The position numbers and the translations under genes are program-made. A model generated the notes under the pieces. It ran no database searches. It had not been told where the DNA came from and saw only the letters and a list, made by a program, of their open reading frames with translations. A stretch of 64,000 bases of DNA, from NCBI GenBank assembly GCA_963798845.1, contig CAWCUS010000001.1:128001-192000 (forward strand), read 5' to 3'. Of the stretch, positions 53,096 through 59,163 are shown one piece after another (within the stretch, counting starts at the first letter, position 1; each line of letters opens with the position of its first letter). The stretch comes from an uncultured Gemmatimonadales bacterium (lineage in GTDB: Bacteria; Gemmatimonadota; Gemmatimonadetes; Longimicrobiales; RSA9).

Positions 53096-53280
53096 TCACC
53101 ACCAGGCGATTGCCAGGACCGCAGCGACCGTGAAGGCGAGCAGCCCCGTATAGAAGATCCAGAGCCTTCGGAAGGAGAGCGACGGGTGGATCCGCCGCGC
53201 GAGCAGGGCCAGCAGGGCCCCGCCTCCGAGGGAACACGCCAACCAGACTACGACGAAAAGGGCGATCACCGCGCGGGGGG

Positions 53281-53284
<4 letters not shown>
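53096..53284 (-). CDS. Small 2-TM membrane protein
   Basis: 62 aa, two hydrophobic helices flanking a basic loop; ATGA overlap with the regulator stop. Confidence 0.6.
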
Positions 53285-54648
<1,364 letters not shown>

Positions 54649-54649
54649 T

Positions 54650-55297
54650 CTATCCCCCGGCAGCGCGGCTGGCGACGAACACCAGGGAGTCGCCGCTGAT
54701 GTAGAGCGCGCGGATCCCCGGCGGCAGCGGCACGGCGACGGCGTTGGGCGCCAGCCCCGGCTCGCCTCCTCCGCGGAAGCGGCGCAGGATCGGCGGGATC
54801 AACCGGTCGGGCACCGGGATCCCGGCCGCGCCCAGCTCGTGGATCTCCAGGGCCACCCGCCCGCTGTCCACGGGCGTGAAGCTGCCCACCGCCTTGAGGG
54901 TGGTCGTGTCCGGGAGGATGGAGAGGATGTCCTGCAACTCCGGGATCCGGCCGAAGCGCGCGGTTGCGACTCCGGCCTGGAGTGTGACCTGCCCGTCCCG
55001 CAGCCCGATCCGCGGCCGCGCCACGTCCGCGGGCAGGAACCCGCCCCAGCGGTACTCCAGCAGGCTCTGCAGCTCGGCCTGGTGAAGCGCCACCCGATCC
55101 CGCCCCCCGGCCGTCCCGAGCTCCGCCAGCTTCCGGTCCGCCTGCGCGGCCAGTTCGGGCGTGACGGCTTCGGCCGCGTGGCTGCGCCCCTTCCACAGCT
55201 CGGTGATGCGGTCCCGGTACAGCCAGGCCGCGCCGACCAGCGCGACGACAATGACCAGCGCAAGGAGGCGACCGATGCACCCCCGCAGGAACCGCAT
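54650..55297 (-). CDS. Hypothetical membrane-anchored protein
   Basis: N-terminal TM anchor; tight 1-nt spacing to both neighbours. Confidence 0.7.
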   Translation of the reverse strand: MRFLRGCIGRLLALVIVVALVGAAWLYRDRITELWKGRSHAAEAVTPELAAQADRKLAELGTAGGRDRVALHQAELQSLLEYRWGGFLPADVARPRIGLRDGQVTLQAGVATARFGRIPELQDILSILPDTTTLKAVGSFTPVDSGRVALEIHELGAAGIPVPDRLIPPILRRFRGGGEPGLAPNAVAVPLPPGIRALYISGDSLVFVASRAAGG

Positions 55298-55298
55298 C

Positions 55299-55892
55299 TC
55301 AGGCCTTGGCGCGCGCCAGGATGTCGGCCGCCGAGTTGCCGAGCTTCGCCGCCATTCGCCGCTCGTAGCGTGCGCCCTTCGAGGACAGGTGGCTCTCCAT
55401 CAGGTCCAGCGTCCGCACGTTGCTCTCCCCCGAGAACTCCAGCGCCGCGACCATCTCCTCGAAGTTCCTGAAGTCGCCCGCCCTCGCCGTCGGCTCGGCC
55501 CGCCCCAGCGTGATGTGCGGGTGGAATGCGCGCACCTCGCGGTCGAAGCCGAGCGGGGCCAGCTCCCACTCCACGTCGTGCTTCAGGCAGCGCAGCTCCG
55601 CGGACGCCTCCGCTCCCAGCCAGATCACCTTCGGGCGACGCATGGTCGGAAACGCGCCCGCCCCCCCGAGCTTCATGACGAATGGGTGCGTCTTCTCGGC
55701 GACGCGGGCCACCGCCTGCTGCACATCCCGCAGCCGCTCCGGGCGCACCTCGCCGAGGAACTTCAGCGTCATGTGCAGCCGATCCATGTCCACCCACCGC
55801 ACGGGCAGAGCCGACTCGCGCATGCGCCGCGCCGCGCGCGCCATGCGCTGGCGATCCTTGGCAGTGAAATTGACTGCTACGAAAAGTCTCAT
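55299..55892 (-). CDS. thpR: RNA 2',3'-cyclic phosphodiesterase (2H family)
   Basis: MRLFVA, two HxT motifs (LHMTLKFLG, PHITLGR). Confidence 0.93.
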   Translation of the reverse strand: MRLFVAVNFTAKDRQRMARAARRMRESALPVRWVDMDRLHMTLKFLGEVRPERLRDVQQAVARVAEKTHPFVMKLGGAGAFPTMRRPKVIWLGAEASAELRCLKHDVEWELAPLGFDREVRAFHPHITLGRAEPTARAGDFRNFEEMVAALEFSGESNVRTLDLMESHLSSKGARYERRMAAKLGNSAADILARAKA

Positions 55893-55905
55893 CGGCTCCC
55901 TGGGT

Positions 55906-56139
55906 TCATTCCTTCGCCGGCGTCACGTCCAGCGCCACGTACCGGAATCCGAGCGTCCGGATCTCCGGCGCCAGCGCTGCAATCCGCTCCAGCGTGCCCA
56001 CGTCGGCCCGCACCGCCGCGATTTCGGCACCCACGCCGGCGGCTTCCACCGTGGCCTCGATCCCGGCGCGGTGCAGGAGATCCCTGGCCCGCGCCGCAGG
56101 CGAAGCCGCCCGTTGCGGGGCTCGAACGGGGATGCTCAC
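55906..56139 (-). CDS. 77-aa protein resembling the LarE C-terminal domain
   Basis: GTGA overlap with the larE stop; LLHRAGI...EIAAVR...LGFRYVALDV parallels LarE LLRREGL...SVARVE...LGFERVLIDV. Confidence 0.72.
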   Translation of the reverse strand: MSIPVRAPQRAASPAARARDLLHRAGIEATVEAAGVGAEIAAVRADVGTLERIAALAPEIRTLGFRYVALDVTPAKE

Positions 56140-56960
56140 GCGCTGAGCTGAACGAGGCCCTCGTTCAACGCGCCCCGGCGGTACCCTTCCACGTCGATCA
56201 GGACGCGCTCGAAGCCGAGGGCGGCGATCGCCGCCGCCTTCCCGGCCACCCGGGCGGCCGCGCCGCCCAGTTCCTCGGGGGAGATTTCTACACGAGCCAC
56301 GCTGCCATGGTGCCGCACCCGGAACTGCCGCAGCCCCTCGCGGCGGAGCAGCGCTTCTGCCGCTTCGACCTGCCACAGCCGCTGCGGCGTGACCGCCAGC
56401 CCGTAGTGCAGGCGGCTCGACAGGCAGGGCGACGCGGGCTGATCCCAGGTCGGCAAACCCAGCGCCGCCGACAGCAGCCGGATCTCCGCCTTCGTCAGCT
56501 GCGCCTCCTGGAGCGGGGACCGGACCTTCCGCTCCCGCGCGGCCCGGGCGCCCGGACGGTGGTCGGCCGCGTCGTCCGCGTTGGCGCCGTCCACCACGGT
56601 GCTCAGCCCGTGCTGCCGCGCCACCACCGACAGCCGCGACCACAGCTCACTCTTGCAGAAATAGCACCGGTCCGTGGTGTTCGCGGCGTAGCGGGGATCC
56701 GAAAGCTCGTGCGTCTCGATCTCGAGGTGCGGGATCCCGAAGCGCTCGACGCACTCCATCGCCATCCGGTGCTGCACCTCGGGGTACGCTTCCGAGCGGC
56801 CCGTGACCGCCAGCACCCGGTCGGGACCGAGCACGTCCAGCGCCGTTTTCGCCAGGAACACGCTGTCCACGCCGCCGGAATACCCGACGCACACCGAGCC
56901 GCAATCCTCGAGCGCGCCCACCAGGGCCCGGTGCTTGGATTCCAGCGCCTCCCGGTCCAA
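56136..56960 (-). CDS. larE: ATP-dependent sulfur transferase LarE family (PP-loop)
   Basis: YSGGVDS, RCYFCK, DGANADD..HRPG, TKAEIR, PCLSSR, RVRHHG, GYRRG; TTG start after a GGAG SD. Confidence 0.92.
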   Translation of the reverse strand: MDREALESKHRALVGALEDCGSVCVGYSGGVDSVFLAKTALDVLGPDRVLAVTGRSEAYPEVQHRMAMECVERFGIPHLEIETHELSDPRYAANTTDRCYFCKSELWSRLSVVARQHGLSTVVDGANADDAADHRPGARAARERKVRSPLQEAQLTKAEIRLLSAALGLPTWDQPASPCLSSRLHYGLAVTPQRLWQVEAAEALLRREGLRQFRVRHHGSVARVEISPEELGGAAARVAGKAAAIAALGFERVLIDVEGYRRGALNEGLVQLSA

Positions 56961-57087
56961 ACTCTGCTCCTTCCCCGGTTCCGTCCGTGCCCGGCGCGAA
57001 GCTACCGCATTCCGCGCACGCGGACAACACGGGCGCCCCGGCCGCTTGACGGAAACCGCTCCGAAAGGTACCCATCCGCCAACCTTC

Positions 57088-57615
57088 ATGCACGAGAAGA
57101 GCCGAATAGCCTCGACCGCGCTGGCCCCGGGCACGGAGACCGTGTGCCGCGGCCGCCGGTTCCTCGCGCCGCTGCTCGCCGCCACCCCTCTCCCCCTCCT
57201 CCGCGCCGTCGCGCCCGCCTGTCTGATCGGCGCCACGGTCCTGGCCGCCTGCTCGGGAGGGCCGACCGAAGCGGATCCCGTGTGCGGCGAATCGCCCGCC
57301 CTGGTCCCCGGCGTCGAGACGGTCGGCGATCTCGGCCCCGGTGACGCGATGCGCGACGACGCGCCCGTGGACTACTACACCCTCCAGCTCGGCCGCGGCG
57401 CCACGCTCGTGGTGCGCATGGCCACACCCCGGTTCACGCCCTTCATCTACCTGCTCGACGCAGACGCACGGCTCCTCGCCCAGGCGTACGACCCGGAGAG
57501 AGGGCACTCCACCGACCTGTCCGTGAGCGTGGATGCCGGGTGCTACATCGTGGGCGCGGGCGCCTGGGACCCCGGGAGCGCCGGGAACTACACGCTTTCG
57601 GTACACCTCCAGTAG
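57088..57615 (+). CDS. Lipoprotein with a PPC (pre-peptidase C-terminal)-like beta domain
   Basis: LAA-C lipobox, DYYTL, F.P.IYLLD, GCYIV, GNYTLSV; start uncertain. Confidence 0.68.
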   Translation: MHEKSRIASTALAPGTETVCRGRRFLAPLLAATPLPLLRAVAPACLIGATVLAACSGGPTEADPVCGESPALVPGVETVGDLGPGDAMRDDAPVDYYTLQLGRGATLVVRMATPRFTPFIYLLDADARLLAQAYDPERGHSTDLSVSVDAGCYIVGAGAWDPGSAGNYTLSVHLQ

Positions 57616-57621
57616 CGCGGG

Positions 57622-59163
57622 TCAGCCCGGCGCCTCGGCCAGGACCGGCCGGTCAAGGGCACGATACTGGACCGCCTCCGCCAGGTGTCGTCCGTCCAGC
57701 GCCTCCGTCCCCTCCAGGTCGGCGATGGTCCTCGCCACCCGCAGGATCCGGTCGTGCGCGCGCCCCGAGAGGCGAAGCTGGCGCGTCGCCGACTCCAGCA
57801 ACGCGACCCCCGCATCATCCGGGGCGCAATGAAGCCGGGTCCCCCTCGCGTCGAGCTGTGCCGTGCAGAACACGCCCGAGCCGGCGTACCGGCGCTGCTG
57901 CCGCGATCGCGCCTCGAGCACCCGCCCCCGGATCCGCTCGCTCGATTCCGACAGCCGCCGATCCGCCAGCCGCTCGGCCGGCACCGGGCGAACCTCGAGG
58001 TGGAGGTCGATGCGGTCCAACAACGGTCCCGAGATCCGCCCCCGATACCGACGCACCTGCTCCGGCGTGCACCTGCACCGACCGGATCCGTCTCCCTGCC
58101 GCCCGCACGGGCAAGGGTTCATCGTGGCCACGAGTGTGAACCGGGCCGGAAGCTCTACCGCCGCCCGCGCGCGGCCGATCAGGATGACGCCGTCCTCGAG
58201 CGGCTGCCGAAGCGCTTCCAGGGCGGACCGGCGGAACTCCGGGAGCTCGTCCAGGAAGAGGACCCCGTGATGCGCCAGCGACACTTCTCCCGGCCGCGGG
58301 ATGCTCCCACCCCCCACCAGCCCGGCGTCCGAGACACCGTGATGGGGCGCGCGGAACGGGCGCGTGTGCAGCAGCCCGGACCGGGGTGGCAGCCGGCCAG
58401 CGGCCGAGTGCACCCGGGTGGCCTCCAACGCTTCATCGCCCGTCAGCGGCGGAAGGATGGACGGGAGCCGCCGGGCCATCATCGACTTCCCTGAGCCGGG
58501 AGGTCCGATGAGCAGGATGTTGTGGCCACCCGCAGCCGCGATCTCCAGCGCCCGCCGCGCCGAAGCCTGACCTCGTACGTCGGCGAAGTCCGGTCCCGCG
58601 GCGACGGGGCGTCCGCCCCCATTGACGCTGGCGCGTGCCACTCGAGGGGGCGCTCGGCCCTGCAGCCATTTCACCACCTCGCCGAGCGACCGGGCAGGGT
58701 GCACGGTGACGCCCTTCACCACGGCGGCTTCCGCCGCATTGGCTTCCGGCACCACCACCCGCCCGACCCCGCTGCTGCGGCAGCGCAGGGCGACCGCGAG
58801 AACGCCGTGTACCGGCCGCAGTCCCCCGTCCAGCCCCAGCTCGCCCACGCAGCAGGCGCCGTCCAGCGTACCCTCGGCCAGGCGTCCCATCGCGGTCAGC
58901 ACCCCGAGCGCCATCGGCAGGTCGAAGGCGCTCCCGTTCTTCGGCACGTCCGCGGGGGCGAGGTTCACGGTGATTCGCGCTGGCGGCAGGTTGAAGCCGC
59001 TGTTCCCCAGTGCCGACGTCACGCGCTCCCGGGCTTCGCGTACAGCACCCTGCGCCAGCCCCACCACCGTCATCGAGGGAAGCCCGCGCGCCAGGTCCAC
59101 CTCGACCCGCACGAGGTACGCGTCCACGCCCAGGACCGCTCCACCCAGTATTGTCGCCAGCAT
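57622..59163 (-). CDS. comM: YifB/ComM family Mg-chelatase-like AAA ATPase
   Basis: ITVNLAPAD, GPPGSGKS, FRAPHH, GVLFLDE, NPCPCG, ISGPLLDRID. Confidence 0.93.
   Translation of the reverse strand: MLATILGGAVLGVDAYLVRVEVDLARGLPSMTVVGLAQGAVREARERVTSALGNSGFNLPPARITVNLAPADVPKNGSAFDLPMALGVLTAMGRLAEGTLDGACCVGELGLDGGLRPVHGVLAVALRCRSSGVGRVVVPEANAAEAAVVKGVTVHPARSLGEVVKWLQGRAPPRVARASVNGGGRPVAAGPDFADVRGQASARRALEIAAAGGHNILLIGPPGSGKSMMARRLPSILPPLTGDEALEATRVHSAAGRLPPRSGLLHTRPFRAPHHGVSDAGLVGGGSIPRPGEVSLAHHGVLFLDELPEFRRSALEALRQPLEDGVILIGRARAAVELPARFTLVATMNPCPCGRQGDGSGRCRCTPEQVRRYRGRISGPLLDRIDLHLEVRPVPAERLADRRLSESSERIRGRVLEARSRQQRRYAGSGVFCTAQLDARGTRLHCAPDDAGVALLESATRQLRLSGRAHDRILRVARTIADLEGTEALDGRHLAEAVQYRALDRPVLAEAPG

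Follow-up and report, generated by a model that had tools for sequence, protein, structure and literature searches.

The larE Locus and the Small ORF at Its End

In the window, the whole 64,000-nucleotide stretch of DNA analyzed here, larE encodes a PP-loop ATP-dependent sulfur transferase and lies on the minus strand at 56136..56960, followed on the same strand by a small ORF at 56139..55906 that encodes a LarE-tail-like protein. The larE product matched NCBIfam TIGR00268 over profile positions 2-259 of 259 (E 7.6e-92, 307.2 bits against a cut-off of 150), and the homology-supported core of the gene spans 56139-56936. The mechanically called larE ORF, 366 aa long and starting at a GTG at 57236, is ~90 codons too long. 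Given that the family match begins at residue 101 of this ORF and that a TTG at 56960 lies 6 nt after GGAAGGAG, larE was taken as 56960..56136, and this inferred start gives a LarE of 274 aa, as in relatives. Residues invariant in 56 LarE sequences comprised SGGVDS (G18 S20 G21 G22 V23 D24 S25), C91-x-x-C94, and C171, the PP-loop and CXXC...C motifs being defined as in excerpts of PMC9283937. By these motifs, LarE at this locus is of the CXXC-C, predicted [4Fe-4S], type; the CXXC-C LarE of T. maritima, according to the same excerpts, binds a [4Fe-4S] cluster and obtains its sulfur from a cysteine desulfurase (PMC9283937). The profile of the small protein aligns to the enzyme's own C-terminal domain, whose coding segment within larE lies at 56163..56372 on the minus strand (coordinates computed from the first row of the LarE C-domain alignment A2, window 56139-56402, minus strand) and contains RVRHH, ARVE, and GFERVLIDV. 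Of the genes expected beside a larE that serves nickel-pincer cofactor synthesis (P2CMN to P2TMN), neither larB nor larC turned up in a scan of 57 window ORFs, and larA was likewise missing from them.

The small ORF consists of 77 codons and a TGA stop, opens with GTG, and has a stop-free translation. An earlier reading of this DNA from sequence only (hereafter the sequence-only reading) had described it as hidden within a longer, spurious ORF and as starting in a GTGA overlap with the larE stop, and both descriptions proved accurate: a mechanical 245-aa ORF at 55906..56643 encloses it in the same frame, and plus-strand bases 56136-56139 read tcac, i.e., GTGA on the minus strand, where the GTG start of the small ORF and the TGA stop of larE share four bases (56136..56139). 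G+C content at the three codon positions of the small ORF was 0.79/0.58/0.82, GC3 being the highest of the three, compared with a GC3 of 0.91 in both larE and thpR. The window as a whole has 69.9% G+C, and long chance ORFs are consequently abundant in it. No Pfam or NCBIfam family matched the small protein of the window at E <= 1, and when 56 members of its family were searched against Pfam the commonest match, TilS, was to two members (best E 0.0011), the rest being single matches at chance level.

Downstream, thpR/ligT, encoding an RNA 2',3'-cyclic phosphodiesterase (TIGR02258, E 3.5e-43), occupies 55299..55892 on the minus strand and starts 13 nt after the stop of the small ORF, the two belonging to the same tightly packed gene string. 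It is followed by a gene for a 215-aa protein (54650-55297, minus strand), which has a hydrophobic N terminus and no Pfam or NCBIfam match and is conserved at the same position in most of the loci compared below (26-59% identity), and then by a sigma-54 response regulator gene. A 62-codon ORF at 53096-53284 on the minus strand, hydrophobic in translation and with a GC3 of 0.87, overlaps the stop of the sigma-54 regulator by 4 nt and may be another small coupled gene. Upstream of larE, a yifB/comM-like Mg-chelatase gene lies at 57622-59163 on the minus strand. Between it and larE, the end (about 57150-57615) of a plus-strand ORF at 56803-57615 looks like a lipoprotein, having a signal-peptide-like ...ATVLAAC|SGG and then a weak match to the PPC pre-peptidase C-terminal domain (E 0.11); the start listed for this ORF falls inside larE, and the true one probably lies further downstream.

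Relationship of the Small Protein to the LarE C-Terminal Domain

The sequence-only reading had aligned the small protein by eye with the C terminus of LarE just upstream. As a pairwise comparison this did not stand, since BLASTP of the small protein against LarE returned E 0.18 with only 10 residues aligned (LGFxxVxxDV) and the by-eye alignment is therefore not significant by itself, but the similarity was recovered by profiles and by structure. In the HMM-HMM comparison that had been proposed as a check, hhalign matched 56 small proteins (alignment A1) to the C-terminal domains of their 56 cognate LarEs (alignment A2) with a probability of 96.4% and E 1.2e-9 over 69 columns (template columns 11-80). 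When the small-family profile was searched against 177,635 PDB sequences, the top two matches were L. plantarum LarE (5udq, 6b2o) at residues 194-256 with E 1.1e-7, the next best match being at E 0.013. The HMM of the small ORFs also matched the C-terminal domain of LarE in many loci (HMM positions 5-70). The match was to LarE residues 194-256 only, with no NCBIfam or Pfam match, and the PP-loop ATP pyrophosphatase domain is absent from the 77-residue protein.

The AF2 model of the small protein (pLDDT 85.3, pTM 0.68) has a helix-strand-strand-helix-strand topology, with helices at residues 14-24 and 47-61 and strands at 30-34, 40-45, and 67-72. In the structure comparison, also suggested beforehand, the Foldseek matches listed against PDB (ranks 1-46) were all LarE chains, from L. 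plantarum and M. maripaludis, with TMq of 0.55-0.63 and probabilities of 0.99-1.00; the query is short, and the best Foldseek E was 7.7e-3, none being at E <= 0.001. Judged by these profiles and the predicted fold, the small protein is an ancient duplicate (paralog) of the LarE C-terminal alpha/beta domain, much as the sequence-only reading had proposed in calling it a free-standing paralog of that domain.

The same reading had held that the DNA is not a recent repeat, and no direct repeat (seed 7, length >=12) was found in window 55900-56420. A recent duplication is thus ruled out and, with no repeat at the DNA level between the small ORF and larE, the duplication is old.

Conservation and Selection

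Loci for comparison were the best 80 of 349 confirmed stretches encoding LarE relatives, all of them Gemmatimonadota MAG records; in one of the 80 (L067), the contig ends inside larE. Sixty-six of the 80 loci encoded a homologous domain immediately following LarE, as a separate ORF in 59 and fused in frame to LarE in 7. In 55 loci the separate form was a homologous ORF of 64-103 aa with a normal start codon, beginning -29 to +60 nt from the larE stop, and 38 of these 55 had the exact 4-nt overlap with larE (GTGA in 23, ATGA in 13, and TTGA in 2). Applied to translated frames, the HMM of the small ORFs revealed the domain as a separate frame in four further loci (L043, L045, L051, and L060). 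By the ORF search and the HMM search of translated frames, the domain was absent from 13 of the 80 loci, which nonetheless have LarE; LarE can therefore do without it.

Under a codon model (IQ-TREE GY+F3X4, 56 sequences, 67 codons), omega in the frame of the small ORF was 0.10 (the run log also prints 0.11), compared with 1.13 (+1) and 4.21 (+2) in frame-shifted controls on the same columns, in which 65 and 27 stops, respectively, were masked. A spurious ORF is ruled out by this difference. The codon model with frame-shift controls was used in place of NG86 pairwise dN/dS, which was saturated over all pairs, with a median of 0.66 in frame versus 0.69 in the antisense frame that shares third positions.

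Relatives of the small protein were also found beyond these loci. A HMMER scan of the family profile against 1.84 billion cluster representatives yielded 1480 matches at E <= 0.001, of which 199 also passed E <= 1e-10; the top 150 measured 66-179 aa, all but two being shorter than 110 aa. The nearest ESM Atlas clusters consist of 70-76 aa proteins annotated 'hypothetical protein' and belonging to no Pfam family, their commonest known phylum being Gemmatimonadota. A word-index homolog search with the single small protein gave four non-self matches, and the same type of search, with the alignment as query, found no longer (fused) relatives, a method that gives weak evidence only. Taken together, conservation across loci, omega, and the relatives in the HMMER and ESM Atlas searches show that the 77-codon ORF is a genuine protein-coding gene, conserved and subject to purifying selection. 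This accords with the prior view that it is old and maintained, and its translation would be coupled to that of larE.

At columns 69-73 of alignment A1, the small family divides into two length types. One, the Longimicrobium type, is longer by an insert of five residues and carries a conserved Trp (…AWxRMLGDEG…); the other, shorter one includes the small protein of the window. The small proteins of Gemmatimonadaceae are more diverged (…HGF(T/S/R)(N/H)LALE…) and do not have the three residues before strand 2.

Fusions and Gene Neighborhood

The seven in-frame fusions to the C terminus of LarE (L006, L012, L013, L058, L075, L076, and L077) were scattered among split forms on a quick LarE tree, requiring five changes, of which at least two were forced by well-supported branches. 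On the same tree, the loci without the domain formed two clades plus L055. A fused fragment was also present in the protein library (P0011). In the AF2 model of one natural fusion, L012 (pLDDT 90.3, pTM 0.87), the extra domain repeated the helix-strand-strand-helix-strand pattern of the LarE C-terminal domain with pLDDT of 87-96. This fusion was folded from alignment A4; a further MAFFT alignment, A5, placed the free-standing proteins on LarE's own C-terminal domain, not on the extra domain of the fusion, and was left out of folding.

The domain was also found joined to a second protein. At L051:4816-6048 (plus strand), residues 1-80 constitute the small domain, fused to the N terminus of a TIGR01977 cysteine desulfurase family protein, the ORF running off the contig end. 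L043:4790-6213 has the same gene order as L051 with the small-domain frame interrupted, possibly by an assembly indel, so that a clean desulfurase fusion is seen at one locus only (L051). No fusion of the domain to thpR was seen among the loci.

Across the loci the gene string reads yifB, larE, small gene, cysteine desulfurase family gene (TIGR01977, E 1.1e-107), thpR, 215-aa protein, and sigma-54 regulator, with the small gene, the desulfurase gene, and thpR being variably present. The string from the yifB-like gene to the sigma-54 regulator (window 53096-59163, minus strand) is syntenic in Longimicrobiales and Gemmatimonadales MAGs (L001-L080). Among the 66 loci with the domain, the next gene was the desulfurase in 44, thpR in 20, and another gene in 2; among the 13 loci without it, these numbers were 1, 6, and 6. 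In six Gemmatimonadales loci, thpR comes directly after larE, overlapping or abutting its stop. The small ORF is followed by thpR in the window and its nearest relatives, and the window is among the 22 of 66 domain loci that have no adjacent desulfurase gene; tblastn at E 1e-8 found no desulfurase in the 64 kb of the window.

Kept and Lost Residues

RVRHH, ARxE, GF, D, and GYRRGxLN were invariant in the 56 LarE C-terminal domains. In the 56 small proteins, V-(S/E)-(V/A)-(E/A)-G-(H) takes the place of RVRHH, ARxE and GYRRGxLN are absent, and the sequence ends just after GFRYVALDL, in agreement with the remark of the sequence-only reading that the conserved RVRH and GYR residues are missing. The small family has retained only fold-determining residues, namely a Leu and a Gly in the first helix and turn, the Gly before strand 2, and the last strand, GFRYVALDL. 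Over the family alignment only G64 was invariant, with L22, G26, G35, and F65 conserved at >=90%, and cysteine was not among the top three residues of any listed A1 column. The L. plantarum counterparts of the RVR arginines are Arg212 and Arg214, for which a role in binding the substrate phosphate has been proposed (excerpts of PMC9283937). With RVRHH, ARxE, and GYRRGxLN lost and no conserved Cys, the small protein is predicted to be neither a catalyst nor a persulfide carrier. The second of these candidates was ruled out by the lack of a conserved Cys in the small family.

The tails of the LarEs themselves also vary. In a Gemmatimonadales clade of six members, which has no small gene, they end in ...GYRRGxLLxI..., and most LarEs accompanied by the small gene have the tail ...GYRRGALNEGL...LVQLG. 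A Gemmatimonas clade without the small gene has a LarE tail like that of neighbors with it, and no clear rule emerged.

A Proposed Role as a LarE Partner

Three observations point to a non-catalytic partner domain of LarE: it is fused to LarE in some loci, its gene commonly overlaps larE by 4 nt, and no catalytic motif is left in it. On balance, and with slightly better than even confidence, we propose that the small protein is a non-catalytic accessory domain of [4Fe-4S]-type LarE that is made in step with LarE and binds it as a protein-protein contact module. Synthesis in step with LarE would follow from the overlapping stop and start codons. The small protein would then bind LarE, the same domain being a C-terminal extension of LarE in some relatives, and its most likely role would be that of a contact module that either stabilizes and shapes the LarE oligomer or docks a cysteine desulfurase, which, once docked, would reload the non-core sulfide of the cluster. 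In the L. plantarum LarE hexamer, two residues of the C-terminal domain, Asp231 and Arg228, sit at the three-fold axis (excerpts of PMC7118094), which makes a copy of that domain a plausible protein-contact module. The sequence-only reading had likewise suggested an accessory subunit that could co-assemble with or modulate LarE, for which the LarE fusions and these axis residues give indirect support; the CXXC-C type of LarE and the desulfurase gene of most relatives had escaped it.

The usual place of the small gene between larE and the desulfurase gene, together with the one desulfurase fusion, suggests that the protein may bridge LarE and its sulfur donor. A more specific form of this idea, possible but held only tentatively, is that of a docking adaptor that would mimic the LarE oligomerization domain, slot into the LarE assembly, offer a surface to the desulfurase, and so direct sulfur onto the open iron of the [4Fe-4S] cluster. 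If this were true, sulfur would be relayed by domain mimicry, not by a cysteine-bearing carrier, and the LarE-fused and desulfurase-fused forms would be two covalent versions of one three-part complex. Given the 22 of 66 domain loci without an adjacent desulfurase, such an adaptor role cannot depend on an adjacent desulfurase gene.

Other readings draw on some of the same evidence. A protein that shares the fold of the LarE C-terminal domain, which is found at the trimer axis of the L. plantarum enzyme (excerpts of PMC7118094), and that has lost the substrate-binding motifs could also act as a decoy or regulator, a mimic of the oligomerization domain that caps or competes at the C-domain interface and thereby limits or tunes LarE assembly and activity. 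We consider this unlikely: an inhibitor is less easily reconciled than a constitutive partner with the stable in-frame LarE fusions, found in 7 of 80 loci and in several lineages, or with the tight 1:1 coupling that the 4-nt overlap would bring about in 38 of 55 loci. The small protein might instead handle a ligand, binding a small molecule, be it the pyridinium mononucleotide intermediate, the product, or something else, and passing it to the next enzyme without stable binding to LarE. Its gene always adjoins larE, and the same domain in LarE provides the proposed phosphate binders Arg212 and Arg214 (excerpts of PMC9283937), yet it is exactly those arginines that are missing, along with ARxE and GYRRGxLN, and few polar residues are conserved in the family (G64 being the only invariant position and L22, G26, G35, and F65 the only others at >=90%), which leaves this role quite improbable.

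The position after larE could also be an accident of a conserved gene string, the true partner being the downstream ThpR or the 215-aa protein. thpR is indeed the next gene in 20 of the 66 domain loci, the lineage of the window included, and the whole string from yifB and larE through thpR and the 215-aa protein to the sigma-54 regulator is syntenic across the phylum. However, the domain has LarE as its homolog and, in the fusions seen, LarE or the desulfurase as its partner, never thpR; it is also kept in 40 split loci where the desulfurase and not thpR comes next, mostly with no thpR found in the locus, so we judge a downstream partner very improbable. A non-functional ORF, whether left over from a once longer LarE and decaying or arisen by chance in 70% G+C DNA, would account for the lack of a Pfam or NCBIfam match and for a GC3 of 0.82 against 0.91 in the neighboring genes, in a window of 69.9% G+C with many long chance ORFs. 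It is scarcely credible in view of an omega of 0.10 in frame versus 1.13 and 4.21 out of frame, an ORF intact in 59 and fused in 7 of 80 loci, 199 representatives at E <= 1e-10 (with the best 150 at 66-179 aa, all but two of them <110 aa), and a fold predicted with confidence (AF2 pLDDT 85.3).

The Gemmatimonadota string of larE, a LarE-tail-like protein, and a cysteine desulfurase, with natural fusions on either side, is a candidate three-part system that bears on how a cluster-dependent LarE meets its sulfur donor. A published E. coli Duet system, described in excerpts of PMC11796402, could serve to co-express and assay the three genes. A fold and a likely partner can now be assigned to a family of unnamed proteins of ~70-100 aa (199 representatives at E <= 1e-10), and the loci provide a clean case of gene fission and fusion at a 4-nt overlap.

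Comparison with Known Systems

The sequence-only reading knew of no described example, and this view stands: a full-text literature search, with supplements and subscription papers outside its scope, returned no free-standing or tandem LarE C-terminal domain and no LarE accessory protein, and none is represented in Pfam or NCBIfam. Excerpts of PMC9283937 and PMC11796402 likewise mention no LarE accessory protein, the word 'accessory' occurring 0 times in PMC11796402. What is new here is a duplicated, split-off domain of a known enzyme, LarE, with a testable link to the sulfur donor.

Among the closest known counterparts is the C-terminal domain of LarE itself (the L. plantarum 5UDQ family, ~194-256, and M. 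maripaludis 8CNZ), with which the small protein shares its fold and sequence homology (E 1.1e-7; TMq about 0.6) and, in L. plantarum LarE, the last strand GFRYV(A/T)LDL. It differs in being free-standing or a second tandem copy with no PP-loop domain, and in having no equivalents of Arg212 and Arg214, ARxE, or GYRRGxLN. TusA and SufE/CsdE are small sulfur-relay partners of cysteine desulfurases in which a conserved cysteine carries the persulfide. Encoded beside a sulfur transferase and a desulfurase, the small protein might similarly be a go-between, but its family, unlike TusA and SufE/CsdE, has no conserved cysteine, and the Pfam, NCBIfam, and PDB searches brought up neither a sequence nor a profile match to them.

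A functional precedent is the pairing of the T. maritima [4Fe-4S] LarE with E. coli IscS, which was used as a stand-in desulfurase (excerpts of PMC9283937); the LarE encoded here is likewise of the CXXC-C type, and a desulfurase gene is part of the string in most relatives. The desulfurase genes of T. maritima are distant from its larE, and the same excerpts speak of no third protein (PMC9283937). Unlike T. maritima, Gemmatimonadota place a small LarE-tail-like protein between larE and the desulfurase gene, and in some genomes it is fused to either one.
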